Made by a program: the position numbers and the translations under genes. Below are positions 16,093 through 56,481 of a stretch of 64,000 nt of DNA, in pieces. This DNA is from Barthelona sp. PCE. Lineage: Eukaryota. The notes beneath the pieces are model-generated. The model was given only the letters and a program-made list of their open reading frames with translations, ran no database searches and was not told the DNA's origin. Position 1 is the first letter of the stretch. Every line of letters starts with the position of its first letter. The stretch is from positions 744,001-808,000 of the forward strand of contig JAUFOR010000001.1 in assembly GCA_040285745.1 (NCBI GenBank). The letters are read 5' to 3'.

Positions 16093-18444
16093 CTATATGA
16101 TTAATGGGGTACGTTCGTTGACAGAAAGCTTTTGCGCTTCATCTGGCTTACGTGGCCACCATACAATACTGTCTCCACTGAGATATAGAACAGCAGGAGC
16201 TATTAGAGTTCTTACGAATAAAACATCAATGAATACACTTGATGCAAGGATAATTCCAATAGATTTGACAACTACGAGGTCTGAAACAGCTAATGACAAG
16301 AACGAGGTTATCATGATGAAGCCAGCACCCAAAATCGTTGGGATATTATCATGCATTGCTAACTTAATACTATTTGTGTGACTATATCCTTCAAAACGCT
16401 TTTCTTTCACACCAAGGAATAGGAAGAAAGTATAGTCGGTTGAAAGGCCTACACAAATGGAAAAAGCAATTACTTCAGCCGCCCACAACAAACTGTCACT
16501 GCCAGTATTGCCAAAAATTTGGTTTTGGAAAATTGCAGCGCCAATACCGAATGCAGAACCGATGGGGATAATCATCAAAGCAATCATTCGGACAGGAAGC
16601 CATGGAAGACGAGTCATAATGATCGACCAAACTGCAATAACAGCAGCAGTAATAACTATCTGATAAGAGAACATATCCATAACAGTATTAACTAGATCAA
16701 ACTGACGAATTGCAGTGCCATCAACAACGACCTTGATGTCAGTGCTTTTGTTATTGAACTCATCAACAACACTACGCATTGTGGATGGTAGGACGTTTTG
16801 AATTTCCCCAAAAGGATCTACATTAGGCTGGGCAAGAAGAACCGTGCCTGTCATATCTTTGTTGGTAACCTGAGAGAAAACTGCGCGGTAAACGACGGCC
16901 GAAGGTGTCTGGATAGGAACGTGTGTAAAGAGATTGGCGAAGTCGAAATCCATTTCTTGTCCACTGATGTATGCCTCACCCTCGACATTCATACTCGTGA
17001 GGTAAGTTGCATTTTTGGCAATGAGCATATTAGCGAAGTGAGCCTGCTTATCGAAAAACTCTTGGGAGAAAACAATGCCGTCTGAGGGTGAGAATGAGGA
17101 TTTATCAGGTGAACCACTGACGTTATGAAAAACGAAATAGTATGGGTTGACAATACCAGCAGAAAACTCACGACTCAGCAAATCTAAGGATTGTTGATTC
17201 AGTGATGTACTGGGAAAGAATTGGTGATTGTCAGTCGTGTAATCCAAATGTAGCAGAGGTCCAACAAAGAGTGAACTGACTCCAATGGCAACAACAACAA
17301 CCGAAATCGCAACCCACTTGTTTGAAAGTAAGTTACCTAACCACAGGAAGACTGACTTCGGTTCCTCTTCAGCAGCCTCAAGAGCATCTTTCCGTTTCAA
17401 AGTGGATGAAAACCAGGGGAAGGTCAACAGCAAAGAGGGTGCGAGTGTAACGTTGACCAGCATGATTGCTATGATGGCAGAGATACATCCGACAGCCAAA
17501 GACCTGATGGTTGAAGTTGGAAACAGTAAAAGTCCAGCAAATGACAGTAGAAGACACGTGGCGCTCGTAAAAATGAGCTCCGTGGATGCCTTTGAAGCAA
17601 TTCTGGTCGCTTCAACATGTGTTTTACCTCTACCAATTTCCTTGCGGAAACGCACCAACATAAACAGACTGTAATCAATACCAAGCGCAACAATTATGCT
17701 CATGATGATTGAGGGTACGAATATTAAGACCTTTCCAGCCCAAAATTTTGCAATAAAATACATTACTGCGAAAGAGATCAAAAAAGTTACGGATAAACTG
17801 ACTAGAGGCACAATTAACAGCTTAATTGACCGAAGCATAAGCACCAATATGATGAACGCAAGCGGTATAGCAATTTTATCCATGTTCGAGAGATCTAAGG
17901 CTATTTGCTTTTTTGAAGTATCAACCAAAGTATCAAAGCTAAGCATGTCCGCAAAAACTACACTTTCATTGAGTTTAAGATGATCTATATAATCACTTAT
18001 GGTGCTTGCAAAAGCAGCTTTTTTGCTTGGTTCAGTGATCTCTGTTGTTATGAGGTTAATGATGGTAGTGTTGTCGTCAGAAACCATGTAGTTGAGAAGA
18101 GAACGAACATCAGGATCATCGAAGTTAAAAATTGAAAAAAAGGTGGCATTAACGAGATTATGAAGCGTGGTATTGAATTCACGAATCAAAGATTCAACAT
18201 GTGCATCAGTCCTAACATCACTACCATTAGTTTGAACAAGAAGCACGCCAGGACTCATATCAGCTGAATTAGGAAACAAGCTATCACGCAGATTCTTTGA
18301 TTTGAAGCCTCTGGTAGTCTCTGGCGCCTTTAAATCGAAAGAGCACTCGTTAGGAAATTTTAAGGCAAAGGGAATAGATGCAGCGGCTAAAAGGATCCAT
18401 AAAATAACAATGACTTTAGGAAATCTAGAAATAAAGGCCCACAT
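16093..18444 (-). CDS. MmpL-family RND transporter, 783 aa
   Basis: Two repeats of 1 TM + loop + 5 TM. GIDYSLFMLVRFRKE and GLSTDYTFF proton-relay motifs; RTLIAPAV...WWP near the C-terminus. Confidence 0.9.
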   Translation of the reverse strand: MWAFISRFPKVIVILWILLAAASIPFALKFPNECSFDLKAPETTRGFKSKNLRDSLFPNSADMSPGVLLVQTNGSDVRTDAHVESLIREFNTTLHNLVNATFFSIFNFDDPDVRSLLNYMVSDDNTTIINLITTEITEPSKKAAFASTISDYIDHLKLNESVVFADMLSFDTLVDTSKKQIALDLSNMDKIAIPLAFIILVLMLRSIKLLIVPLVSLSVTFLISFAVMYFIAKFWAGKVLIFVPSIIMSIIVALGIDYSLFMLVRFRKEIGRGKTHVEATRIASKASTELIFTSATCLLLSFAGLLLFPTSTIRSLAVGCISAIIAIMLVNVTLAPSLLLTFPWFSSTLKRKDALEAAEEEPKSVFLWLGNLLSNKWVAISVVVVAIGVSSLFVGPLLHLDYTTDNHQFFPSTSLNQQSLDLLSREFSAGIVNPYYFVFHNVSGSPDKSSFSPSDGIVFSQEFFDKQAHFANMLIAKNATYLTSMNVEGEAYISGQEMDFDFANLFTHVPIQTPSAVVYRAVFSQVTNKDMTGTVLLAQPNVDPFGEIQNVLPSTMRSVVDEFNNKSTDIKVVVDGTAIRQFDLVNTVMDMFSYQIVITAAVIAVWSIIMTRLPWLPVRMIALMIIPIGSAFGIGAAIFQNQIFGNTGSDSLLWAAEVIAFSICVGLSTDYTFFLFLGVKEKRFEGYSHTNSIKLAMHDNIPTILGAGFIMITSFLSLAVSDLVVVKSIGIILASSVFIDVLFVRTLIAPAVLYLSGDSIVWWPRKPDEAQKLSVNERTPLII

Positions 18445-18752
18445 AATCTATAAAATATGAATGAAAAGAGTAAGAAAAGAAAAGCAGAGATGTATGGGTA
18501 TACAAGAATTACGTGAAGTTTGAGGTTTCTGTATTCTATTAAAAGACTGTGCAATTAAATACTATCCCATAAAAGAAGTTAATGTCAAATGTTTCCTAAT
18601 ATTCTCTATACAGTATTTTGTAGGTATTTTAACTGTATTCCTCCCGTACACTCACTATGTGCCGATGTTTCTGACTTTTAAACAGTTGGGGCCCAACTTT
18701 TTCCACTCAGAGTTGTTTTAGTTAAAAGAACCTCGTTCGTCATCGTCATTGA

Positions 18753-19662: not shown

Positions 19663-22657
19663 TTACAAGTCACTAAAGGTTGTTGTGTTGACAGTACTCA
19701 CTGTCTCATCGAGTAAATTCTTGTATTCCTTATGAATTGGATCACCCAAAGATTTGCAGATATTGATGAGCGGTTTGAGCACCGATGACAACATTCGTTT
19801 ATCATCTTCAACAATGGGCAGTATGCTCTCATAAATTGTTCTTGCCTCTTCATGCCTCCTGCTAAAGTACAAGGCATCGGCCAAACATCTCTGGACAATG
19901 ATATCAACGCTGTCTCCCTTCCTCTCAATAAGAACAATATACGACCTGTACACTGTGGCAGCAAGGTTAAACAGCTTAAGAGAGCTGAAATTCTGTGCAA
20001 TGAGCAGCAAAAGTGAGAAATCTGACAAGTGCTCCTTTTTCGACAATGATTCGGTCAGCAAGACGTTGATCTCGTTCAGAAGTTTCTCTTTACGTTGCGT
20101 AATGGTGACATCCTCTTCCTCATGTGTTCCACTGGATGTTATAAGGATGCGCTTCTGTAAAAGGATTACAACATTTAGCAATACGTCAACCTGTTCAGGG
20201 TTCAGCATATTCGCCTGGTTTAGACAGTTCTCAGCAGTAATGAGATCCCCGAAGTGTAAGTAAGCAACACCGAGAGCCTGCCATATGTAGAAACATTGAC
20301 GAAGATCAGTGCGGTTGTCATCGTTAAGGTTTTCAAGCAAGAAGCTCTTGAGAGCACTGAAATTTGACTGTTTGATGAGCACAAATGCGAACAAAATAAT
20401 GGAGCGGTCATCGAACTTCTCATCGGTATTAAGAATCTTGAAGGCATGTAAGAAGTGTTGTTCCGACTGAACATAATCACCCTGGTAGTAAAGAAGCTGT
20501 CCTTGCAATAATCTAATTTCAATGGCTAGATCTCCGCTGTCTAACAAGATGACTTCATTGATGTATCGCTGTGCCGTTTCGAAAGATTTGGTGATGACGT
20601 GGATCTTGGCGAAGCGGAGATAAACACCAGCTTCGGCACCGTACATGTTTAGATACTCAATGAAGCAGAACTCTGCAAGCTGAAGGAAGTGCTTCTCGAG
20701 GAGGAAATCACCAAGGAAAAGAAGAATATTCTTATCTGCTGCATATTGCTTCTTGTAGTCGGCAGCACCGCGGTTGTTTTTGCGTTTGAGTTCAATGAGA
20801 TAGCACAAAGCAATATACAAGTCCTCGTTCAGGGTATCCTTGATGGAATCCAAAACTACATCAGCCTCATCCAACTTGTGTTGTGTTAATAGCACTAATC
20901 CATACAACAGGGTTAGTTCTCCACTGTTGCCTGCGTCGGCGAGCATGTCATGTAATAGTTCGTGTACCTTGTCGATCTCTAAGTCTTGCAATAGGAGAGA
21001 AAGAATCTCTGTTCCAACACTGATATTCGAAGACTGTCTAGTGAGGAGCTTTAACACTAGTTCGTCAAACTTCTCTCTCTCGCAAAGGTAATAGAAAACC
21101 TTGAGATTCCACATATCCGCTGATAAATCGAGCTCTTGTTGATTGTTAATCTTGACGTCTTCTAACAGCATCAAATTCATCTTCTCGACAATCATGGAAT
21201 GAACACTTGTAAAAACACCGTGCACGTCCTTAACATCGAGCTGCAGAGCCTGACACAGTCTGAGAAGCTTAACTTTCATGCTAGCACGCATTGTAGCGAA
21301 ACTACCGTTGGTGTTCAAATTCAAAAAGAGTTTTCTTTTGGCGCTATCGTAATCCTTTTGATCCTCCAGTGAAAGAAGGGCGAACTCCTGCTTCAGAGCA
21401 GTAACAATAGTTGCAATCTCATCATTGAATTCTTCCAAGACAATATCAGTGACACAGGACTCATTTTTGTCAGTTTTCTTCGGTAAGATATCATCAACTG
21501 AAATATCCAATGAATCGATGCGTCTAGCAGCAACTAGTGAAGGTGAGAAACGAACATCCACACTCCAAGTTGGTTTTTTATCATCTTCTTCACTAGAAAC
21601 CCAAAAGGCTTTATATTGGGCCATAATCTCCTGATCCTGCCCATCTTTGACACGGCGACTGCTCTTAACAGACTTCAATGCCTTCTTACTACCCTTTCCT
21701 TTCTTGCCAGCAGCACTTGAAGGGGGTTCATTCTCGCTTTCAAGTTCCTGTAATGCTGTATAGAAGGACTCTCCTTGAGTAATAGGGACAACAAACTGCT
21801 TGTCCTCGATACCTGGCCTCAAAAGGTTTTGAAGAGCTACAGTGCATTCGATAGAGTTAAAGAATAGACCATAAGAATCCATCGAGTCTTCAAGATTCCT
21901 GTTTAGGTTAAAATGTAATTGGAATCCTTTCTTTTCGACCAAGATATCTCTGACGTTCTCCAAAAGTAAGAATTGTTTCTCAGAAAACTCTATTTGTCCT
22001 GTATTTTCATCCAATTTTCCAGTTAAGAAACAAGGGTACGTCATCTCTGGAAGCTCAAAGCTTAGCTTGTAGACAAAATCAGCTCCGTGCTCACCATCAT
22101 AAACTGGGATAGAAAGTGCACCGGGGGTAAGTGTAAGGATGAAGAACTCTTCGCTATTCTTCAAATGTTTTGGATAGTTGTTCACTTTAACACCAAAGCT
22201 TATGAATAGCTCCTGTTCGGGAATTTCCTCCGCTGCAAGTTCCTCCTCAAAGTCTTCGGATGCCAAATGATGGTTGACAGAGAAATCCAGTTTCTCATCC
22301 TGTAAGAATCCCTCCATACTATGCTCCTCACTCACGTAGAGTTCGATGCGGCGGGTCTCCTTTTTCTTCTTCTTTTCCGTGAAGATTAACTTATATGAGA
22401 ATTTCTCGTTCAAAATCATGTTGTAGATATCGTACATAAAAGGCATGTCTAAAACTAGCCCCTCTTCGAAGGATACTGTTCCTTCTTCAGTGATTACAGC
22501 TGTTAATTGTGCAGCTTCTGTTTGAAACGGAAAATTCCATTGAATGGTACAATACAGCTCTTTTCCTGCTGAAAATGGTAAATTGTGAATGTCGTTCACA
22601 TTTATCTCTTAATGTTAGACGTTGAATTCATTTATATGTGTTAAAAAAAATACCCAT
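19663..22657 (-). CDS. CFAP70: Cilia/flagella-associated protein 70 (TTC18), 2 exons (22654-22657, 19663-22607), 982 aa
   Basis: KRKLFLNLNTNGSFATMRASMK and SPSLVAARR...VDDILP resemble CFAP70 blocks; C-terminal TPRs. Splicing ATGG|AG gives an in-frame MEINVND start. Confidence 0.78.
22608..22653 (-). other. Spliceosomal intron, 46 nt (CFAP70)
   Basis: GTATTT...TCTAACATTAAG; removal supplies the ATG missing from the GTG-started ORF. Confidence 0.85.
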
Positions 22658-34904: not shown

Positions 34905-35168
34905 AAACTGCTAAAAAAAGCGTAAAAAAGCGAAAAAAGGTATAAAACGTTTAAACAGTTTTTAATCGTCCCACACTAATCGAAACAGCTTCAACTGCAA
35001 CGCTTGCTAATTGGATCTCCATGTAAGGGTCAAACGTTTGAATATGTTACGCTGAAATGAATTATGTAGTATTTTGTTTGTACTTTGTTTGATGCTTTCT
35101 TAAAATTACCATCATGCACAATATAGAGTTAAAGGCTGCTTTAACTAAAACAAATTCTATATTATTTA

Positions 35169-36476
35169 CTAGTTAATGTTAACAATAAGAGGTTGCTCTT
35201 CTTCCTTTTTCTTTGCTTTCTCAGCCTCATCCTCTTCATAATACAAACCTGGGATACGGATATGACCCTTAAAGACGAATGAAGCAGTAATCATAAGAAC
35301 AAAACCAATAACACGAATGTACGTATACTTAGTAAGCTTTTCACCGAATTGAGGGTATACAAAGTACAAGGCAGCGCTGAAAACGAACACAGTAACACAT
35401 CTGAGATTCTCAATGATTGTACGAACGGAAGTTGAAGCAATTTTCGAAATATTTTGTCCTGCGCTGTTATAAAATGCAATAATAATAAGGTTAGCAACCA
35501 ATAAAACAACAAGGGGTAAACTGTTCTTGATCATCTTAATTGTAACAAGACTGTTTTCAACTTTACCGTAATTTCCACCAGGAATAAACTGTAAAATGGG
35601 AAGAACAATAAAGATGCTCAGAATTGCACCATATATACCTTCAAATGCGACAATCTGTGAAGTGGGAACATCAAATTGCTCAATACAACGCTGAACCAAG
35701 GATTCTTCAAGTTGGATACCCTCTTCTTCACACTTATTCCTAAACAATGTAGAATACTCTTTCTCCATCTCGTTCAAGACTTTCTGCTCTGATGAGAATT
35801 GACAGCTCCACATGAAAGCAGCAAAGGCCACAGCAGTAGTACCAATAAAACTTGATGTCATAGACGGTTGCTCAATAGCAAGGTTCAAGAAAATAAATAA
35901 AAGACCCATGATTGCCATAGCGATAGCAATTGCAGTGTGACGAAAGATCTTAATTCCGTAAAATAAAGAATTGAGAGTTGTTGTTGCGATGATCTGAAGT
36001 GAACCCGCAAGTAATTGATAGATTGAAGCATCAATGAGCGCAAGACCGAAGCTCGAAACGGCTGATGCAATGAGATCGAACAGAGATGGAAGCCAAATGA
36101 ATTTAATAGATGATCTGTTAAACTTACGTTCCAAATCTCCCAAAATCGTTGGTTGTTGTGTTCCAGACAGTAATGGTTGTTCCTCGTCACTGGACCCCTT
36201 GGTTGAGACCTTCTTCTTTGCAACCTTCTTGTGTTTTTTGTTGATCTCATTTTCCAGATCTTTAATAATTTTTAACTTTGCGCGGCGGTCGCCTCTGTAT
36301 GACGGATAAAGCATCGACATACCAATGAACATTACAAGGGTTGTGAACCAAGGTTGCTGGAATACATAAGTGGTTCTTTCTACAACTACTGTGAAAGAAA
36401 GAATCACCTTTAGTGATTCGGTTGATAGGAGCCCCCAAAAGAGCATGACTAGTGAAGCCCGCAATAATGATGCCAT
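35169..36476 (-). CDS. SLC35F6-like (DMT superfamily) transporter
   Basis: FQQPWFTTLVMFIGMS, LPSLFDLIAS, VAFEGIYG, RTIIENLR; about 10 TM helices; two EEQPL(L/I) dileucine motifs. First ATG at 36476. Confidence 0.85.
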   Translation of the reverse strand: MASLLRASLVMLFWGLLSTESLKVILSFTVVVERTTYVFQQPWFTTLVMFIGMSMLYPSYRGDRRAKLKIIKDLENEINKKHKKVAKKKVSTKGSSDEEQPLLSGTQQPTILGDLERKFNRSSIKFIWLPSLFDLIASAVSSFGLALIDASIYQLLAGSLQIIATTTLNSLFYGIKIFRHTAIAIAMAIMGLLFIFLNLAIEQPSMTSSFIGTTAVAFAAFMWSCQFSSEQKVLNEMEKEYSTLFRNKCEEEGIQLEESLVQRCIEQFDVPTSQIVAFEGIYGAILSIFIVLPILQFIPGGNYGKVENSLVTIKMIKNSLPLVVLLVANLIIIAFYNSAGQNISKIASTSVRTIIENLRCVTVFVFSAALYFVYPQFGEKLTKYTYIRVIGFVLMITASFVFKGHIRIPGLYYEEDEAEKAKKKEEEQPLIVNIN

Positions 36477-40710: not shown

Positions 40711-41814
40711 CTATTGTTCGCTTTTTCGTCTTGCTATTCTTCCAGCTTCCAGGCTCTCACGTACCTGTTCTATAATCAAATCTCTCTTTTCTCTCAGGAA
40801 TGTGAAACCCTTGCTTGTTAATGAATACACCTCAACCGAATTTCTCCCCCGTTGCCTAGCCGATCTATTCCTCTTATCGACACCAGTGTTGGTGTTTTTA
40901 TATGTTTTTGAAGCCAGATTTAGGTCCAACAAATTATCTAACCATTTCTTTAATATAATTCGATTAAGAGCAAAATGAAAATGAACACCTTTAAGTAAAA
41001 GGATGTTCTCTACAGTGAAGGTTTGGTTTTCAGCCAAATTCAATTGGTCAATCAAATATAGTAATTGATAATGTGAAAGTACCATATCATCTTCAGCCTT
41101 ATTACCCTTAATATAGCTAAAAAACTTACCCACGTCAAAATTACATCCGAATTTCAGCACGTAGTCCTTCAAAACTAAGAACATTCGTCTGCAATCCCCC
41201 ATTGGAGCAGCTTCACTGAGTAAAAGTTTCATGAAAGGTCCGATCGCTCTGCTTAAAGTAGGAGATATGACTCCCAGTATAGACTGTAACTCACTGGATG
41301 TGTATGCTCTGAATGGTACTACGTTCCATTTTTCTTTACGAAAAGCTAGATCATTACACAAACCTAATACAAAACAGTTTTCAAACACTGCCACTTGTTC
41401 TAAGAATACGCATGAGGAGCCCTTCAACGTGTCAACTTCATCTACAACAATTAAAACTCTATGGAGTTTTCGTAGCATGTCAAAAATATCTACATCGTTA
41501 TCATCAAAGCCCATTCGTTCACAAATTACGTTTCTGATAGGTGTGTTGTGGTGAGTCGCTCCCATAAGGTCAACAATAACTAAATCTTCGATATGGTAAG
41601 GACTATCCTTTTTTGTCACTGCAGAAAGTAAACAGTTCTTAGTAAGCGTCTTTCCTGTACCCGGGACCCCGGTTAACACCATGGGAGTTGGCGAAAACTC
41701 AATTAATGAATTATAAACAGTTTGAAAATGTTGTTCACGACATGGTGGTGGAATTGGCGGTGAACTCGTAAGTTCTGCAATAATTAAATCAGCATCCGTT
41801 CCGTTTCCACTCAT
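40711..41814 (-). CDS. Divergent Cdc6/Orc1-family AAA+ ATPase, 367 aa
   Basis: CRE, Walker A GVPGTGKT, Walker B LIVVDEVD, sensor GLCN, FRAYTSSELQSIL, GDCRR. Confidence 0.85.
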   Translation of the reverse strand: MSGNGTDADLIIAELTSSPPIPPPCREQHFQTVYNSLIEFSPTPMVLTGVPGTGKTLTKNCLLSAVTKKDSPYHIEDLVIVDLMGATHHNTPIRNVICERMGFDDNDVDIFDMLRKLHRVLIVVDEVDTLKGSSCVFLEQVAVFENCFVLGLCNDLAFRKEKWNVVPFRAYTSSELQSILGVISPTLSRAIGPFMKLLLSEAAPMGDCRRMFLVLKDYVLKFGCNFDVGKFFSYIKGNKAEDDMVLSHYQLLYLIDQLNLAENQTFTVENILLLKGVHFHFALNRIILKKWLDNLLDLNLASKTYKNTNTGVDKRNRSARQRGRNSVEVYSLTSKGFTFLREKRDLIIEQVRESLEAGRIARRKSEQ

Positions 41815-41852
41815 AAATGTTCTTGAAAAAGGATCAAAATCAATTTACAATC

Positions 41853-43739
41853 TTACCATTTGTTAATCATTAGACGATCGGCCTCATTTGTCCTGTGTTG
41901 CTGGACGTCATCCACCTCTTCTTCCTGACTCTGTACATAGTTCAATTTTGTTGCAAGAAGTCCAACAGTATTGTTCCAATACTTTGACTGAAGAGCGTAC
42001 ATGTCGTAATTTTCTTCAATGTTATTCTTCTTTGTCCTCAGTTCCCTGGTCTCCATCTCTGTCCTCTTTGCATATTTCTCTAGTTTTTCAGGGAAATTTG
42101 TGATTACTTCCAATGCAGTCTGCTTCACTTCCTGTAATTCATGTAAAATATTCAAAAAATGGAAAGAAGATTCAACCTGCTGACTCTCAGTAAGATCAGT
42201 ACGCACATCATCCAACATCTCATCACCGAGAATGGATTCAAAAACTTGTTCTCTTTGCTTAATATCATTCAGCAGACTGCTCTCTTCTTGTTTAAGACGC
42301 TTCAATTCATCCTTGTATGGCATGATATCGTCCTCCTTTGACTTAATCTTATCTCTTAATTCTTGTACAATAAATGTAAGCTGCTGCAATTTTTCCACTT
42401 TCTCCTCATCAACTCTGTTCTTTACCAACGTCTGCTGTTTGATATGATCCATATCTGACCGATCACCCAATCTGTCCCTCAGATGCTGGTCAGCATTAGG
42501 CACTATCGAACGCAATGTATCCAATGTACCATCCAAAACTGATAGTTCGTTATCTGTAACGGTTTTTTGATGCTTAACTGCATGGTACCTTTTAGTATTC
42601 TCGGATGCATATTTCTTCAGCTCTTGTAATTCCTGTTGTAAAGTAACAGTTGAACCACTATCATTTTGCAACTTCTTCTCAGCCATTGACAATTTACCAA
42701 CAACCTGATCGATCTGTCTGTCAAGCTTCTCAATCTTCTGAGTGAGCGTTGCGTCGTGCTTTTTAAGGGTATTCAACTGTTGATGTTGCTCAGAATTAAT
42801 ACTATGACTGGATACGCTGTTCTGTAACTGACGAATCTCTTGCATCAATGCTTCCACCGTACCATCTGTTGCGTTACTAGCAACCTTCTCCACATGCTCT
42901 TTATCAATGGTCTTCTGTCTTAATTCGCCCTCTTTTAACAGCATTTGTTCAACGTCATCACTTAGATCTTTCATCACAATGAGGGGAATAACTTCTTCCA
43001 TTTGATATGTCTTCAGCTTCTCACTAATACCATCCAAAAAGTCTTCCTGCAACTTTAACTTCGATCGTTCATTGCTTAAAACATCCTCGTATTTCTGTCG
43101 AGAATGAGTCAACTCCTCAAACTGTGAGCACAGGCCAATCAAATCTTGATTGATTCCTAATTGGTTGAGCTCTTTTGTTGAGTTCTCAACAACAACAGAC
43201 TGGTGTTCTATAGCATCGTTACGCACAGATATTGCATCCTGAACCTCAATTAAATTAACATGCTTGCTTTCAAGGTCAACGTACTGTGTGCGCAAGTCCT
43301 TAAATTCTGTTTGTAGCTCCTGAATCTGCTCCATGAGCTCTGCAAAATTGGGATCATGAATGTATTGTGGAGGAACTTCAATCTTTCTGAAATATTGGTG
43401 CTCATAAACAGTTTCTTTCAAGTCCTCTGCGTTGTTCAACAGGAACACAAGGATGTCCATGACAGTTTCCTTTGGTGTTTCTGGTGATATACTAAGAGAG
43501 GTCTGTGATTTATGCTGATACCCGCATATCTTGAGGAAATTCTGTAAAATACCCGATCTCTCCTCTCCGCTTGCGTGTTCAAGTATCTGGTGGTAATCCT
43601 CTGAGATGTTCTTAACTATTTCTAGGACATACAACAGAAGCTGATCTGTTTCCTGTGTGTCTAGCTCTACTAGGGTCAGCCCAAAGTGCTTACTCACGAT
43701 TGCGTATCCCTGAAGCGTTTCTTCCCCGTCAAAATTCAT
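41853..43739 (-). CDS. IFT81: Intraflagellar transport protein 81
   Basis: N-terminal CH-like domain (LTLVELD...QLL, FLKICGY, LVFLLNNAEDLK, KIEVPPQY) then long coiled coils; ends in DRLMI. Confidence 0.85.
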   Translation of the reverse strand: MNFDGEETLQGYAIVSKHFGLTLVELDTQETDQLLLYVLEIVKNISEDYHQILEHASGEERSGILQNFLKICGYQHKSQTSLSISPETPKETVMDILVFLLNNAEDLKETVYEHQYFRKIEVPPQYIHDPNFAELMEQIQELQTEFKDLRTQYVDLESKHVNLIEVQDAISVRNDAIEHQSVVVENSTKELNQLGINQDLIGLCSQFEELTHSRQKYEDVLSNERSKLKLQEDFLDGISEKLKTYQMEEVIPLIVMKDLSDDVEQMLLKEGELRQKTIDKEHVEKVASNATDGTVEALMQEIRQLQNSVSSHSINSEQHQQLNTLKKHDATLTQKIEKLDRQIDQVVGKLSMAEKKLQNDSGSTVTLQQELQELKKYASENTKRYHAVKHQKTVTDNELSVLDGTLDTLRSIVPNADQHLRDRLGDRSDMDHIKQQTLVKNRVDEEKVEKLQQLTFIVQELRDKIKSKEDDIMPYKDELKRLKQEESSLLNDIKQREQVFESILGDEMLDDVRTDLTESQQVESSFHFLNILHELQEVKQTALEVITNFPEKLEKYAKRTEMETRELRTKKNNIEENYDMYALQSKYWNNTVGLLATKLNYVQSQEEEVDDVQQHRTNEADRLMINKW

Positions 43740-43893: not shown

Positions 43894-45196
43894 ATGTCTT
43901 CCGATAAAATTCCGTTTCTACCTGGCCTGACACAGCACCAGGACCCCTTAGTATGTTTGGTTTTATCTCTATGTTTGAAATTCGTGGGGATTGAGAATTT
44001 CACTTGAATTGTCTAACACTTAGAAGCGTTCACACAACCTGAAGCACACATTTGATTTCAAAAATGGCATTCCCATTGATAGAGTTACCCTAAATGGTGC
44101 AGCACTTGAAGAAATTGAACCTATGCGTGATACCAGATTTGATCATAAGGAAGCCGAGCGTGCTAAGGGCTTAGAAAAGTCATTTGAGCCCCACTTTGTT
44201 ACCTATAATAATGCAGTTTTACGTTTCCACGCTCAAATTGTTGAAATGATTGATAACAAGCCAGAATTGCGTAAATTTTTTATTGATTTCCATCTTGAGG
44301 ATGAGATGACATCCATCTACGAACCCAAACGTACAAATTCCGGTATGATGCAAGGTACTTTCTTGCGCAAGGGTAAGTACCTTAACTGGACTGAGTTAAA
44401 GGTAGATTCTGAGGTAACCCTCTTCGGCAGGACGTTCTATGTCTACGGTTGCGATGAGTTTACCCGTAACTTCTATGAATCTGTTGGTTTAAGTCAAAAC
44501 GCTGACGTTGATGTGGATGAGAAGCCCATTGAAGAAGTTATTGAACGCCCCACTGTCAGTAAGAGCGATGATAAGCGCGGTCTCTTCTTAAAGAACGATC
44601 GTAAGGTCCTTCGCTTCTGGTTGACATGGGATACAACTAAGGAACCTTTTGGTCGCCTTCGTCATTTTACTCTTCATTATTTCCTTGCTGATAAGACTAC
44701 TGAAGTCTATGAGAATGAAGAGGATGGCTCTTTGCCCTTTTTACGCAAGAATGTCTTACTGCAACCAGAAGATATTCGAACTGGTGAGACCGTCAATGTT
44801 TTTGGCCGTATTATGCAAGTTCATTATTGCGACGCTTTCACACATCAATGGTATCTTGAGAACATGCAACTTGAACAAGAAATGCCTCCAGTTGAACAAG
44901 AAGAGGAAAATACAATTGAGCAAGTCGACGAGAAGAACAGACGCGAATTTACTTGGCGTTTTACTGCTGTTCTTGAGCAAGAACCAGATCGTAACTTTGT
45001 CATTCATCTCTTTACTGATGATAAGATTTCTATCTTCGAAGTTGCCGAGCGAAACAGCGGCTACGTTGGAGGTAAGTTTTTGGAAAGGTATACTGGTGCT
45101 ATTGAAGGTGAATTAAAGATTGGTGAGAAGGTTGTAATTAACTCTTTTACCTTTATATTAGTTGATGCTGATCAAAAGACATTAGAAGTTTTGTAA
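43894..45196 (+). CDS. EFHC1: EFHC1/Rib72 axonemal DM10-domain protein, 2 exons (43894-43950, 44024-45196), 409 aa
   Basis: Spliced N-terminus IPFLPGLTQHQDPL|KRSH...FDFKNG matches the EFHC1 LPFLPG...YRNG block. Three DM10 repeats (VLRF, NSGMMQGTFL, RNSGYVGGKFL). Confidence 0.9.
43951..44023 (+). other. Spliceosomal intron, 73 nt (EFHC1)
   Basis: GTATGT...TCTAACACTTAG; phase-0 removal restores the conserved N-terminus. Confidence 0.92.
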
Positions 45197-45318: not shown

Positions 45319-45893
45319 TTAAAGAGCAATGGTGGAGAACTTCTGAACGGCAGGCCAGATGGCGTGAGCCTCCTTGCCGACGGGACCAGTGATGTTGGTA
45401 CCCTTCATTTCACCCTTGATGTTAACAATGACACCAGCGTTATCTTGGAAATAATACCAAGAACCGGTAATACGACGGAACATCTTGCGCTGACGGACGA
45501 TGACAGCGGGCATAACCTTCTTACGCAGTTCGTAGTCACCAGCCTTGACGGTAGCAAGGACACAATCACCAACAGAAGCAGCAGGGAGTCTGTTAAGACG
45601 GCCCTGAATTGCGTTAACGGCGATAATGTAAAGATTTAAAGCTCCAGAGTTGCAAGCACAGTTGATCAAGGAACAAACTTGAACACCGAAAGTCATTCTG
45701 TATTTAAGGCCAGTTGCGCCACCTCTAGCTAAATGTTAACATGGGACAAGTGTAAGGAACAGTATTTTGGAGATATAAAAGCATGATAAGAAGCTGATTT
45801 CCAAAGAACTCGTATAAAGTTCTTTTCGTCAACAAATATACTTCGGATAGCCTCCAAGACACGTCTTAAGGTCTTCATACCACGCTTAGACAT
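45319..45893 (-). CDS. RPL23: 60S ribosomal protein L23 (uL14), 2 exons (45881-45893, 45319-45728), 140 aa
   Basis: Spliced product [17 protein letters not shown]...GRLNRLPAA...[16 protein letters not shown]...[13 protein letters not shown]. Confidence 0.97.
45729..45880 (-). other. Spliceosomal intron, 152 nt (RPL23), internally base-paired
   Basis: GTATGA...GTTAACATTTAG; removal gives a full-length 140-aa uL14. Confidence 0.95.
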
Positions 45894-46640
45894 GATTCTT
45901 TATGTGATGAAAAGGAAAGAAATTAAAAGGAGGTAGAATGAAAACACAAATAATTTACATTGGGTTGAGACGTTATGGTGGCGAATACATTGCACTACAG
46001 CACAATAAAAAATGTATAACGCTTTAGAACAAAAGTTTGAAAAAATTCCCGACTTTAGTACTTATTGCAATTGTTTCCAAGTTATTATCAACATGGGTTG
46101 ACCGAAATATTGCTTGTCAAATGAACAAACTGTTGCGAACAGAGACAAAAAAGGTATATCAGGCAAATCGACTATACTTGCTATTTATTAATAAAACACA
46201 TTTGATTTCGACACTAATGCCAATATAAGATCACACTCACAACCAAAGTTTCACATAAGACTTTCTCTAAATGGTGAAACATGGATGTAAATCACATATG
46301 TTCAATGTTTCTATGCGGGCTTATCTGAGTATATCAATACAACACACAGTTCATAAAAAAACAAAACAGCATGTAAAAGTGCATTTCAAAAAAATCCCTT
46401 AATGTAAACGAATTTGTTAAAGTTCAAATTGTAAAAAACCATGGGTAAATAATCAATTGTCCCCATAAAAGCAACTAAAAACACATAAAAACAAGAAGAT
46501 TCACAAAAAAAAAAACTAAACTTCATTCAAAACAATATAAACCCAAATTCAATTCTCAATTCAGCTGCTTTAGCTTACAAAATCATCCAGCAACTGCAAA
46601 GAATAATAAAAACATTGCGATAAACTTCCTTTTTCAAATT

Positions 46641-46684
46641 GTATGTTCTTCAAGATTTTGTCTTCAGTTCACACTTACATTTAG
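46641..46684 (+). other. Probable 5'-UTR intron of RPSA, 44 nt
   Basis: GTATGT...ACTTACATTTAG, with the same length class and 3' spacing as the other introns; ends 21 nt before the ATG. No reading-frame test is possible. Confidence 0.75.
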
Positions 46685-51159: not shown

Positions 51160-52827
51160 TTACTGCATGGAGATAACCTTCTCCTTAGTGCGATGCTGCA
51201 GCTTCTTACGTTTAGAAGATGGTAGATCAAGAACTGACTTGCGACATGCAATCTCACGTATATTGTTACTCAAGCTGTTGGAGCTGTGGGCAACCATCGA
51301 TAGCGCGCTTAGAGGGAGCCCATGGTTGACGCATAGCGCCACCTCACTGATCAAATCGGCAGAATTTTCATGACAGATAATAGCACCCACAACTTGTGAG
51401 TTATCTTCTTCAACATGCAGTTTGATAAACCCATTCGTTGAAGCCGTAGATATTGCCTTGAAACTGTGCTGGAAATCACTGACAACTGTTTCGTATTTAA
51501 CTTTATCAGTATCAAGCTCCTGCTTACTGCGACCGATAAAGGCTATCGATGGATTAACGTTGATTCTATAGACTGGATACTTTGGCACGATTGTCACTTC
51601 CTGCTTGGAGCGGGAATACTCACCAACCATGCGGGCCTGGTCGACAGCCTGAGACCAAGTTCCACGAGACTCCTGGATACAGTCACCAACGGCGAAGATA
51701 CGCTTGTTAGTGGTTCGGAAGTGCTTGGATACCTTTATGGCACGGCGGTCGTCATATTGCACGTTGGCAACATCAAGTCCGATGTTTGTGTTCGGTTCAT
51801 TGCCAGCACAGATGAGAACCTCATCACAATGAAGTTGGATGCCCATTGTAAGGTTGATAAGCTTCTCGTCATTCGTGGCTGTGATGCTTGTTGGCTCCGA
51901 ATTATTGAAGCAGTAGACACCTTGTTGACGAAGCGAATTTTCAACAAAATCACTTACAGTCCGGTCAAAATTGCTCAGAAGGTACTGCTTCTTCTCAATA
52001 ATCCAAACCTGCACGCCGAAGTTCACAAGTATTTGTGCCAGTTCGCAACCGGTTGCACCACCTCCAATTATCGCGATACGCAATGGAAGCGAAGAAAGAG
52101 ACCAGAGCGTCTCTGGAGTAATAAAGCCCGTTTCGATGAGCCCAGGGATGTCAGGAATCTTAGTTTTTGATCCCGTACAAATGAAACAGTTTTCAAACTG
52201 AATGTTTCTAGCCCCAACACGAAGGTGCTTCTTATCAGTAAAAATGCCCTCACCGCGATAAACGTGTAGGCCCCTTTCGATCATGTCACGAATGTTGTAA
52301 CGCGACACTAGTCGGTTGCGGCGTAACTTCATCTCCTTGATAGCCGAAGACCACGTGACCAAATTTTCAGCGTGTATGCCCAACATCGCGTACTGTTCAA
52401 GTCTCTTCGATACCTGGCCGAGCTCGTTCATTATGTTGGTTGGGACGGTGCTAAAAGTGAGATCAGAACCACAAACAAGATTCTTCTCGACTAGCGCGAC
52501 TTTCTTGTCGTATGCCAGGAAAAAGTCTGCCAATTCAAGACCAGCTGCACCTGCACCGATGATCACAGCGTGGTACTTGACAAGTGGCTGCTCATTATAG
52601 TCAGGAACGCTCAATACCTCAAACAGCTGTTGATCAAGTTCACAGTTCAAGTCAAGGTAAGGGTGTTGGTCCTGCTTGTACGCAGACGGGACAGGTCCGA
52701 TTGGTGGGGTTGGAATGCGGTTTTCATCATCGATAGCCGCTTGAGTTGTGGATGCCCTGATTTCAAAGCGTTTCTCCTCTAATTTAGACACTAAAAGTTA
52801 GCCCTTGCCTATAAACAAGCCCATACT
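51160..52827 (-). CDS. Class-I pyridine nucleotide-disulfide oxidoreductase homolog (MerA/Lpd-like) lacking the redox Cys pair; ATG formed by splicing (A52827 | TG)
   Basis: FAD motif IIGAGAAG, ICTGS, NAD motif IIGGGATGCE, IFAVGD, dimerisation domain. CGSDLTFSTVPT replaces GGxCxxxGCxP. Confidence 0.85.
52791..52826 (-). other. Spliceosomal intron, 36 nt, splitting the start codon
   Basis: A|GTATGG...GCTAACTTTTAG|TG TCT AAA. Confidence 0.85.
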
Positions 52828-52992
52828 ATGTGTGGAAAAATGTAAAAAGAGAGATTTCAAAATGCAAGTTACAGTTTCAGCTCAACAGTATATTCTGTTA
52901 AATTATAGTATATGTAAGCCTTTTACATGATTTCCTCCTGTCATACACATAAATTTGTCCTTGAAAAACAAACAAAATTTCAGCACTCTTTA

Positions 52993-53668
52993 CTAATCTA
53001 AGCGTAAATCAAATTCTCTAATCTCTGAACCCTCATCTGTGATAATGCACATCTCAATCTTATCTCCTGTGTGAATATCTCGTTCAGCAACAGAACCAAA
53101 TAATGTACGCATAATACTCACAGCTTCTTCCAATTCAGGCATTTCTTCGGCAGTTAAGTTGGAGAACATCTCATCCATGAGTGGAAGACACAAAAACACT
53201 CCAGATCCTTCAACTTTATACTGATGCCTAGATTTGCTACCAATAGAATCATAATCGTATAAAAATGATTCACCGTCTTGCACGCCCACGGCCATGTTGA
53301 ATGTGTAGAATGGGAAAAATCTGCGGTTATAGAGTGTGTTTGATAATAACTGTGCAAAAGCATTGGGATTAATCACCTCGTGGTTTTTTCTCTCATATTC
53401 CTTCACTCGGATCTTCAGAAGCTTTCTTAATGCAATTCTGTCAGCCAATTGGCCTCCAGAACCAAGGCAAATTTTATCTGTCAATGGAGACAGTTTTGTG
53501 ACGTTTCTAGACGGAATTGAGTATCCATCAGACATTCTTGTGTCAGCTCCAATGATAGCAAAGCCCTTTCCGACGATCGAAATAACTGTTCTAAATGTTA
53601 ATTGATGGATGCCTTAAAAGTGCGACATACCCTTTGTTATCTGTGTATGGTGAATATTCGTCAGACAT
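52993..53668 (-). CDS. PSMB1: 20S proteasome subunit beta-6 (PSMB1/Pre7), 2 exons (53631-53668, 52993-53590), 211 aa
   Basis: Spliced YSPYTDNKGTVISIVGKGFAIIGADTRMSDGYSI; LSNTLYNRRFFPFY; AERDIHTGD. Confidence 0.96.
53591..53630 (-). other. Spliceosomal intron, 40 nt (PSMB1)
   Basis: GTATGT...ATTAACATTTAG; phase-2 removal restores the conserved PYxxNxGT. Confidence 0.95.
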
Positions 53669-53949: not shown

Positions 53950-56481
53950 ATGGTTGGGGATATTGTAGTGAATCCACTAGCATGGATTTACTCTCTAATA
54001 GAACGGGTGGGGCCCGATATACTTCAAACAGGTGATCCAGAACTTTTTCAAAACCTTTTTGTGCATTTGTGTCAAATGGATGACAAATTCGAACATTTTT
54101 TTTCGAAAATGGGGTCAACGTTTATGAGAGATGTTATGGAATTGAAGAAAGACCACAAAAATAAGTCTTCCAACGTTTTATATTCAAATCCTCAAATTGA
54201 AGAGCTTAATACAGATATACTTCATGCTTTTTCGACCATTTTATCAATGGCCCTTCAGGAGGACGAAAATGACTTACACATTACTATATGCATCATTTTA
54301 GATCATTTTTCCAGTCACATAAATCTTAAATGCCTTGATTTTTTCACAGATGAGTACTGTCAATTCGTAGTATGCTATAATCTAATTCTGATGGCTGACA
54401 AACATTACTTTATACCACAAAAAGTTTTTTCCTTCTTGCCACCTAAAAAAGGTGAACTTCCATCATATAATTTACCAAATTCCAAGACGTTCAACGAACT
54501 GAACGAGAAAAAGATGGGTCATAACATGAATATATTGGCATTTCTTCTTGATTTCTTAAAATCAAAAAACTATCGACTTTCAATTCATGAACAATGGTTA
54601 AAATCGTTAGTTGTTGGTCTTAACAACATTCTTGGAGACAAAAAGCAAGTTTCTCCTGAGTGGATTACAGAAATCATTACTACCTTAATAGAGAAGCAGG
54701 GGATAGTGTTGGTTGAAAGAATGAATATGTTTTCTAGTGTTAATTTGAGAAGAAAAGCGTTCAATTCAACAGCTTCTAAACCGCAATCATCCAACAAGTA
54801 CGCTAAGAAAGTCTCTGCGACAAGGGAATTTTCTCCTTCACCAATACAGTTTTTACCAAGTGTTCCATTTACTCCGAAACAAAATAATCAGCAGACTACT
54901 CCAGCTCCTGACGTTGAGAGGATACCACGTACTTCATTAGCGCTTTTTTTTTCAGAGTTTTTGGATAAAGAAATTGCTTTGTGTGGAGATATAGCATCTT
55001 TTTGTGTCCCTCACCCTGAATCAATTCCAGGATTTGAACTTTTCATGATGCAAACACTTATATCTAAAGTTCGTGATACGGTGGCTGGCGTTTCCACTAT
55101 GTTACCTTTCAAAAACGGAATACTCTATGTTAATTTAGTGTTACTCAGCGCTATAAACTGCATATTTGGCCTTGTTCCCATCTTTCCGAAAAAGGATGGG
55201 GAGCTGAGCAACATAATCATCACAATCAAGTATTTAGAGAATTTTCTTCAACAACTCAATCACTGTCTCGTTGCTATAGATAATGAGCACACCGTTTTTC
55301 TGGTTATCAGCTGTTTTATAAGCCTTTGGAAGTATATTCCTGATTGCCTTTTACCTACTTTTGAAGAATTCATAAATTCCATATCTTCATTGATTACGAT
55401 TATGAGTTTTATAAGTTACTTTAACTTATGTTTTTATATGGAAGATATCAATATTGTATTAAGTTTTACTAAATCCAATGAACGCAACGACAGCGATAAG
55501 GAATATGATGCATTTTTTTTGCAACATATTAACAATATTCACTATATAAGACTTTTTTCACCTGCACTTTTTGCGTTGAAACAGTCATATGATACACTAT
55601 TTCAGAAGAATTCTGTTGAAGCCACTATATCTTCAAGTGAAAATCAGCAAAAAAAGAAGAAACGTAAAGTACTTGTTTTAAAAAAAAAGGAGAAGAATGA
55701 AAAGCAAATCTTTTCTCCTCAGAAGATTCCAGTTACTAAATCTGTTTATAATAGTATATTGCATGTGTTCAGTCAGGAAAAACAAGACCTATTATATCGG
55801 ATAATAGATAGCTTCATGCTGGAAAAAAGGGAAGAGTGGTCTTTCGTTGTAATTGATGATATTTGTGAACGGTATATGGCTGTAGTAACTGCCATGTTCC
55901 CTTTAGAGCCTCGCTCCGTACTCCTCTTTTCAAAGACACAACTATTTGAGCTACTGAAGGAAAGAATTCCAAAATCAAAACCAATAATCAGGAATGATCA
56001 AAAAAGAATTTTTCATTCTTCTTTTGGTGAATACATTTCAAGCATAGACAGGTGCATTGCTCTCATACACGACTCAGATGTGAGGTCAATACATAGAGCA
56101 ATGACTGTATTGTGTGAGCTCATTTCGAAAGGTAATGAGATACTACCACAAGGCATACTAACCAGTATACAGAGCTTAAACCATTTCCTAAAGATCATGG
56201 TCTCGCTAATTGTTGTTCTTTCCATGAAAGATCTTGATGCTGACATTTTTGAACAAATTTCTGTAGTGTTTGAATTGATTTTTGAGTTTTTTATGAAATC
56301 ATATGATATAGAATCCATAGAGCTTAAACAAAGCATCACTTTATTAACACTAAGATGTATACGTCACAAAAAAATATTTCCCTTCGAAAAACGTAAAAAA
56401 GCATGCATAACGATTTTAAACTTATTTTTAACTTGGTTCAAAATGGATACCTGGTTTGAACAAATCACTGTAAAAGCTTAA
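53950..56481 (+). CDS. Hypothetical helical protein (~843 aa)
   Basis: 2.5-kb ORF, first ATG at 53950; poly-K NLS-like stretch; stop overlaps the convergent gene. Confidence 0.72.
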   Translation: MVGDIVVNPLAWIYSLIERVGPDILQTGDPELFQNLFVHLCQMDDKFEHFFSKMGSTFMRDVMELKKDHKNKSSNVLYSNPQIEELNTDILHAFSTILSMALQEDENDLHITICIILDHFSSHINLKCLDFFTDEYCQFVVCYNLILMADKHYFIPQKVFSFLPPKKGELPSYNLPNSKTFNELNEKKMGHNMNILAFLLDFLKSKNYRLSIHEQWLKSLVVGLNNILGDKKQVSPEWITEIITTLIEKQGIVLVERMNMFSSVNLRRKAFNSTASKPQSSNKYAKKVSATREFSPSPIQFLPSVPFTPKQNNQQTTPAPDVERIPRTSLALFFSEFLDKEIALCGDIASFCVPHPESIPGFELFMMQTLISKVRDTVAGVSTMLPFKNGILYVNLVLLSAINCIFGLVPIFPKKDGELSNIIITIKYLENFLQQLNHCLVAIDNEHTVFLVISCFISLWKYIPDCLLPTFEEFINSISSLITIMSFISYFNLCFYMEDINIVLSFTKSNERNDSDKEYDAFFLQHINNIHYIRLFSPALFALKQSYDTLFQKNSVEATISSSENQQKKKKRKVLVLKKKEKNEKQIFSPQKIPVTKSVYNSILHVFSQEKQDLLYRIIDSFMLEKREEWSFVVIDDICERYMAVVTAMFPLEPRSVLLFSKTQLFELLKERIPKSKPIIRNDQKRIFHSSFGEYISSIDRCIALIHDSDVRSIHRAMTVLCELISKGNEILPQGILTSIQSLNHFLKIMVSLIVVLSMKDLDADIFEQISVVFELIFEFFMKSYDIESIELKQSITLLTLRCIRHKKIFPFEKRKKACITILNLFLTWFKMDTWFEQITVKA

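Follow-up and report, generated by a model that had tools for sequence, protein, structure and literature searches.

The 64,000-nucleotide (nt) stretch considered here (the window; contig JAUFOR010000001.1 of assembly GCA_040285745.1, positions 744,001 to 808,000) belongs to Barthelona sp. PCE, a free-living anaerobic metamonad whose genome of 10.2 Mb, with a guanine-cytosine (GC) content of 40.3%, was reported as the smallest for any known free-living eukaryote (PMC11316075). The window itself has a GC content of about 0.40 and shows long unbroken open reading frames (ORFs) with spacers of about 40-270 nt, including typical eukaryotic genes for a proteasome beta subunit, an IFT81-like protein, a DM10-domain protein, a kinesin, valyl-tRNA synthetase, uL14 and uS2. 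The subject of this analysis is the 5' end of the minus-strand oxidoreductase gene PCE1_004755, which carries no ATG and appears to obtain its start codon by splicing. A preliminary description of the window had proposed that a 36-nt intron splits this start codon, and that its removal acts as an on/off gate for translation.

The oxidoreductase gene and its missing start codon

The features at the locus are as follows, with a slash marking a splice junction here and below.

51160..52790, minus strand: exon 2, consisting of TG, 542 codons and the TAA stop; a pyridine nucleotide-disulphide oxidoreductase homologue (PCE1_004755)
52791..52801, minus strand: branch-site and acceptor block CTAAC-TTTT-AG, used by both intron models, the branch A preceding the 3' splice site by 7 nt
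52791..52826, minus strand: candidate 36-nt intron with donor GTATGG, the model of the preliminary description, whose removal makes A/TG
52827..52827, minus strand: A, to which the coding part of exon 1 is reduced if the start codon is split (joined frame M-SKLEEK)
52828..52851, minus strand: pyrimidine tract with promoter-like character (CTCTTTTTACATTTTTCCACACAT), adjoining A(52827) on the upstream side
52791..52946, minus strand: the other candidate, a 156-nt intron with donor GTATGA, as the deposited protein P0002 implies
52947..52950, minus strand: ATGT, the ATG and one further base, which make up the coding part of exon 1 according to the deposited model (ATGT + TG TCT AAA...)
52956..52968, minus strand: promoter-like 13-mer TTTTTCAAGGACA, 5 nt upstream of the distal ATG
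52988..52995, minus strand: stop codon of the proteasome beta gene, the upstream gene, and overlapping with it a GTAAA motif that resembles a poly(A) signal (TAGTAAAG)

The 542-codon ORF (51163-52788, minus strand) is 100% identical to the hypothetical protein PCE1_004755 of Barthelona sp. PCE, and its stop-to-stop frame (51160-52797) opens at the TAA within the CTAAC of the branch site. Its domains (PF07992 Pyr_redox_2, 6e-52; PF00070 Pyr_redox, 2e-24; PF02852, the dimerisation domain, 2e-12) form the set typical of class I pyridine nucleotide-disulphide oxidoreductases, the group of glutathione reductase, lipoamide dehydrogenase and mercuric reductase. The earliest in-frame ATG is codon 122 (52431). 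Met122 cannot be the start, because both the flavin adenine dinucleotide (FAD)-binding motif IIGAGAAG (GxGxxG) near codon 80 and a conserved N-terminal block near codon 40, which aligns with bacterial relatives (DEH.N..L...V.P.DW.NP.P vs DQH...DQQLFEVLSVPDY-NEQP), precede it.

On the minus strand the region immediately upstream reads ...TTTTTCCACACAT-A(52827), then GTATGGGCTTGTTTATAGGCAAGGGCTAACTTTTAG (52826-52791), then TG(52790-52789) TCT AAA TTA GAG GAG AAA. The 36-nt segment can be divided into GTATGG GCTTGTTTATAGGCAAGGG CTAAC TTTT AG, with ...CACAT preceding A(52827), and the joining of A(52827) to TG(52790-52789) gives M-SKLEEK in the frame of the ORF. All sequence statements of the preliminary description are thus borne out, namely the 36-nt segment, the in-frame A/TG join and the lack of an ATG at the start of the ORF, as is the reading of the unspliced RNA from the ATG inside the donor, MGLFIGKG followed by a stop (8 codons, 52798..52824, minus strand). 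Its term 'consensus intron' is slightly generous, because the +6 base of the donor departs from GTATGT. The deposited PCE1_004755 protein begins MLSKLEEK, which corresponds to ATGT/TG with the same acceptor, a donor 120 nt farther upstream and the ATG left whole. Both candidate introns begin with GTATG (GTATGG and GTATGA), an extended GTATGT-like donor, and end with AG, and the removal of either gives an in-frame ATG that is absent from the genomic ORF before codon 122.

The acceptor block YTAAC-N4-AG occurs with the same spacing in all four of the other introns of the window. The motif itself is not enriched, with 17 copies observed in the window and 15.9 expected; nevertheless, in five of these 17 cases the motif coincides exactly with the 5' boundary of a long ORF and is preceded by a GTAT donor and a short exon that contains an ATG, and the block of PCE1_004755 is among these five. 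A spliceosomal intron with its 3' end at 52791 can therefore be predicted with high confidence, and the sequence supports the view that the gene needs splicing to gain a start codon. The claim of a start-codon-splitting intron is accordingly upheld as regards an intron ending at 52791 and the dependence of the ORF on its removal, but not as regards the split itself, since the donor at 52946 also fits with the ATG whole.

Two candidate donors and the rival readings

The explanation judged best, with even confidence and with the deposited distal-donor form taken as somewhat likelier to be the main one, is that PCE1_004755 has at its extreme 5' end an ordinary U2-type spliceosomal intron that is removed constitutively; the gene encodes a divergent oxidoreductase of bacterial affinity that binds FAD and nicotinamide adenine dinucleotide (phosphate). 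The start codon would come from an upstream micro-exon, for which there are two in-frame solutions with a common acceptor. Transcription would begin near TTTTTCAAGGACA, exon 1 would end in ...ATGT, and a 156-nt intron with the donor GTATGA at 52946 would be removed to give a product MLSK...; the 36-nt A/TG form (donor GTATGG at 52826, product MSK...) would then be a minor or alternative product, or would be unused. The unspliced RNA, which reads as a 15-codon ORF from the distal ATG, would be unable to make the enzyme under either donor, simply as a by-product of the position of the intron.

Several observations point to the distal donor. It is the donor that the start of the deposited protein, MLSK, implies. 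The donor hexamers of the other four introns are GTATGT (two cases), GTATGA (one case, in RPL23) and GTATTT (one case), so that GTATGG is found in none of them, albeit in a small sample. The distal ATG is also preceded by its own promoter-like 13-mer, and TTTTTCAAGRACA has just one further exact match in the window, 3 nt ahead of the ATG annotated for the gene at 40714-41814. To estimate post hoc how often solutions arise by chance, the 191 nt that precede the branch motif were shuffled 20,000 times with dinucleotides preserved. An A/GTATG solution was obtained in 990 of the shuffles (5.0%), which makes the proximal donor alone just mildly improbable, and a solution of the form 'ATG + 3n+1 nt + GTATG' in 546 (2.7%). 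The chance match required by the distal model is thus likelier than that required by the proximal model, and the comparison leans towards the distal donor. Both donors had a solution in 52 of the 20,000 shuffles (0.26%), a rarity that leaves room for the use of both.

Other points weigh against a predominant distal form. The distal ATG lies just 42 nt past the stop codon of the proteasome gene, although same-strand spacers are mostly 140-270 nt, and the proximal model would give 165 nt; one annotated same-strand pair does have a 38-nt spacer, between the stop at 41853-41855 (IFT81-like gene) and the ATG at 41814 (AAA_22-domain gene). Introns of 40 and 46 nt are present in neighbouring genes. 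The promoter-like motifs of the proximal model, at 52841-52851 and 52828-52840, are equally good, with position-weight-matrix scores of 6.2 and 5.2 bits against 5.5 bits for the distal one. The minimum-free-energy fold of the 156-nt intron contains a 15-base-pair helix (nt 12-28 with nt 98-113) that loops out about 100 nt, but this helix is no better than chance, as the end duplex of -14.5 kcal/mol was matched by 80 of 500 shuffles and the z-score of the whole intron was +0.21; the pairing of the 152-nt RPL23 intron is likewise unconvincing (z-score -1.62, with 96 of 500 shuffles as good). AUGUSTUS is not known to place introns within a start codon or to predict introns shorter than about 39 nt; it would then have been unable to yield the 36-nt form whatever the reads, and the deposited model consequently says little against that form. 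That model was derived from a prediction pipeline comprising HISAT2, GeneMark-ET, AUGUSTUS and PASA (PMC11316075). As to length, the 156-nt candidate is close to the 152-nt RPL23 intron, and a 36-nt intron, although it would be the shortest in the window, would be near those of 40 and 46 nt and within the 25-45 nt range of other metamonads (PMC6679479). Promoter motifs, which end in a draw, intron length and folding do not separate the two donors. On balance, the main form is slightly more probably the one with the 156-nt intron and the donor at 52946.

The strongest rival is that the 36-nt intron with the split ATG is the main or only form, with transcription from the pyrimidine tract at about 52850-52830, A(52827) as the whole coding part of exon 1 and MSKLEEK... 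as the product. Besides the in-frame A/TG join, the typical spacer to the upstream gene and the short introns of the neighbouring genes with the same 3' block, this reading can draw on the element CTCTTTTTACA, located 14 nt upstream of A(52827), since the sole other exact match to CTCYTTTTACA in the window abuts the ATG at 53950. Metamonads are reported to have short introns of 25-45 nt (PMC6679479), and 47 Yarrowia genes have first coding exons of one base (PMC2911113). However, it would combine a donor found in none of the other introns with the shortest intron of the window, it rests on an A/GTATG match that arises in one of 20 shuffles, it differs from the deposited model, and it would require the distal ATG and donor, with a promoter-like 13-mer of their own, to be a coincidence of at most 2.7%. 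As the main or only form it is considered unlikely. A wider proposal, that a gene of bacterial origin owes its start codon solely to splicing, through a 36-nt intron gained after transfer and the one-base exon A/TG, possibly with an MLSK isoform arising from a second promoter and the donor 120 nt upstream, is put forward only tentatively; if true, no earlier split start codon would have been described from a metamonad, and a lineage poor in introns would offer a clean example of intron gain.

It is less probable still that both forms are made, either from two promoter-like modules or from one distal start with competing donors, to give products (MLSK... and MSK...) that differ by one residue. 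The rarity of two in-frame solutions among the shuffles is in keeping with such a scheme, as is the fact that each promoter-like element has an exact counterpart upstream of the ATG of another gene. On the other hand, splicing of a distal transcript at the proximal donor would leave an upstream ORF of 15 codons in the mRNA, and the shuffle test was devised after the two solutions had been seen.

The on/off gate of the preliminary description, in which the intron would be retained under some conditions and the 8-codon ORF would serve as a decoy, appears very improbable. The one point in its favour is the non-productive unspliced RNA, yet unspliced RNA is equally non-productive in the four window genes that carry the other 5' introns, and early stops are usual for the introns of intron-poor genomes (PMC2911113). 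Neither the structure predictions nor the Rfam search, which returned no match at the gathering score in the whole window, revealed a feature, conserved element or comparative signal that sets this intron apart. The early stop is thus what 5' introns of such genomes usually show, and regulated splicing is without any indication.

Least credible of all is an absence of splicing, with a start at the in-frame GTG (52791-52789), which does stand at the edge of the ORF, at another non-AUG codon or at Met122, or with an ATG lost by assembly error, as the edge of the ORF matches the intron 3' block of the organism to the base, a start at Met122 would remove the FAD-binding motif, neighbouring genes meet the same problem by splicing, and the assembly was polished with Illumina reads at 308x (PMC11316075, Table 1). 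Separately, the notion that the GTG at AG/TG is a relic bacterial start was rejected, because the bacterial relatives begin about 35 residues further in.

Gene origin and genomic surroundings

The best relatives of PCE1_004755 share 27-31% identity over 83-89% of its length (E ~1e-56). The named ones among them are all bacterial (Desulfomonilaceae, Binatia, cyanobacteria), and the first eukaryote-labelled match follows at about 3e-39. Matches were confirmed in 576 bacterial or archaeal genome stretches, the best 80 of which belong to Planctomycetota, Verrucomicrobiota, Acidobacteriota, Nitrospirota, cyanobacteria and others; in the Atlas, the nearest clusters consist of bacterial 'mercuric reductase family' proteins, and the 90% cluster of the deposited protein P0002 has a single member, from NCBI. 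The gene sits among intron-bearing eukaryotic genes and its GC content is host-like, and it is therefore not contamination. A bacterial origin is plausible on these similarities, set against a thin sampling of eukaryotes. As the closest relatives are bacterial, an intron gain after transfer is plausible whichever donor is used; the earlier suggestion of a gain in a bacterial acquisition is thus sustained as plausible, but the bacterial origin falls short of proof. If the gene was transferred, the intron would be a gain under either donor, in a lineage whose few introns are confined to 5' ends.

The protein keeps both nucleotide-binding GxGxxG motifs. Both redox-active Cys columns are replaced (VCGSDLTFS in Barthelona vs GGDCLNVGC in 12 aligned relatives, residues ~105-120), and the C-terminal HPYPTQGE of the 12 relatives is HSSNSLSN in Barthelona (residues ~503-510), with the His kept and the Glu gone. 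Judging from these replacements, the product probably does not work as a disulphide reductase, and it may be a pseudo-enzyme or an enzyme with altered activity. Elsewhere in the window, a 784-codon ORF (16093-18447, minus strand) has a strong match to the MMPL family (PF03176, 1e-56). MMPL transporters are chiefly bacterial and archaeal, and this ORF is possibly another transferred gene.

The other four introns of the window are as follows.

43951-44023, plus strand: 73-nt intron with donor GTATGT, in the DM10-domain gene
53591-53630, minus strand: 40-nt intron with donor GTATGT, in the proteasome beta gene directly upstream of PCE1_004755
45729-45880, minus strand: 152-nt intron with donor GTATGA, in the uL14/RPL23 gene
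22608-22653, minus strand: 46-nt intron with donor GTATTT, in a TPR gene

Each of them lies inside the first 57 coding nt of its own gene, with its branch A at a distance of 7 nt from its 3' end. Two of them, those of 40 nt and 46 nt, are confirmed by the deposited proteins P0122 (MSDEYSPYTDNKG/TVISIVGKG...) and P0132 (MELEANLVEGEAQTYQME/INVNDIH...), respectively. The overall density is five introns in about 33 window genes. Together these introns provide a first sketch of Barthelona splicing signals, with a GTATGN donor, a YTAAC-N4-AG block and lengths from 40 to about 150 nt.

With regard to the flanks of the genes, a Gibbs-sampled 9-mer, CTCCTTTTC, often followed by A or CA, was found 0-60 nt before most of the ATGs in a set of 32 start codons. 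TTTTCA occurs 13 times upstream of these 32 starts against 2.2 expected (about 6-fold), and TTTTCA, TTTTACA and TTTTCCA are each enriched about 5-6-fold upstream of starts. This pyrimidine motif is likely to be a core promoter or initiator, which would imply very short 5' untranslated regions. At the other end, 12 of 31 genes, where 2.3 would be expected, have a GTAA[AT] motif that starts no more than 28 nt past the stop codon. A T-run often follows this motif, which is likely to be a poly(A) signal and recalls the AGTRAAY of Giardia. In addition to the motif overlapping the proteasome beta stop codon, two further examples lie in 3' flanks.

41844-41852, minus strand: GTAA[AT] motif after a gene stop
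35162-35171, minus strand: GTAA[AT] motif after a gene stop

The 38-nt spacer within 41814-41855 (minus strand) contains a GTAAA together with a TTTTTCAAGAACA element. Between the divergent uL14 and uS2 genes, about 730 nt (45950-46680) hold no ORF of more than 74 codons and no Rfam match; this gap is long for so compact a genome and could possibly hold an unannotated RNA gene or a regulatory region. The neighbouring genes of the deposited proteins P0002 and P0122 are tagged PCE1_004755 and PCE1_004995, respectively, from which it follows that locus-tag numbers in the assembly do not track gene order.

Comparison with known introns

If the 36-nt form is used, the first exon of the deposited PCE1_004755 would be wrong. 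Common gene finders are not known to model split start codons, and in that case such codons would be systematically missed in Barthelona and related genomes. Among the papers listed in a literature search, judged by titles and the beginnings of abstracts, none is on Barthelona introns, and a search on split start codons together with introns returned nothing relevant. The text supplements of the genome report contain none of the terms 'intron', 'splice' and 'PCE1_004755', and its main text has intron once, in the methods (PMC11316075). Split start codons are nevertheless already established in other organisms, and a Barthelona case would add to a known kind. The implications for annotation, intron evolution and splicing signals are modest, and none would surprise a specialist.

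The block in Barthelona, YTAAC-[AT][CT]T[TA]-AG, is unlike that of diplomonads and parabasalids, which is ACTAACACACAG. In other respects the Barthelona introns resemble those of these two groups: the donor is GTATGT-like, the distance from the CTAAC-type branch site to the AG does not vary, and the introns are found close to the 5' ends of ORFs. A motif that fuses the branch point with the 3' splice site has been described for Giardia, Spironucleus and Trichomonas (Hudson et al. 2019, PMC6679479; Irimia & Roy 2008, PMC2483917), and a fixed branch-to-acceptor distance with a 5'-proximal position is reported there as a habit of intron-poor eukaryotes, notably diplomonads and parabasalids. The signals in the window would extend this metamonad pattern of fixed branch-to-acceptor distance to the BaSk clade. 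Two differences concern the density of introns, which is higher in Barthelona, and the long introns, which in metamonads often have internal pairing, the short ones being about 25-45 nt (PMC6679479); in Barthelona the pairing of the long introns is not significant.

Outside the metamonads, an intron interrupts the start codon of ribosomal protein L19 in Nosema ceranae and Encephalitozoon cuniculi (PMC2685015). The likeness lies in a compact, intron-poor genome and, if the 36-nt form is used, in an ATG broken up by a very short intron right at the 5' end of the gene. The microsporidian gene, however, is ribosomal and conserved across species, whereas PCE1_004755 is not ribosomal, has bacterial affinity and offers no orthologue for comparison. 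In Yarrowia lipolytica, the first coding exon consists only of the A of the ATG in 47 genes, and up to 93% of introns create an early stop if left unspliced (Mekouar et al. 2010, PMC2911113). Barthelona shares with this yeast the intron-poor genome, the strong 5' bias of the introns and the early stops in unspliced RNAs. It differs in that the Yarrowia cases were checked with complementary DNA, while the split form in this metamonad is one of two models compatible with the sequence. First-codon introns known from elsewhere follow a complete ATG, in contrast to that of Barthelona, which would lie either inside the ATG (A/TG) or one base after it (ATGT/).

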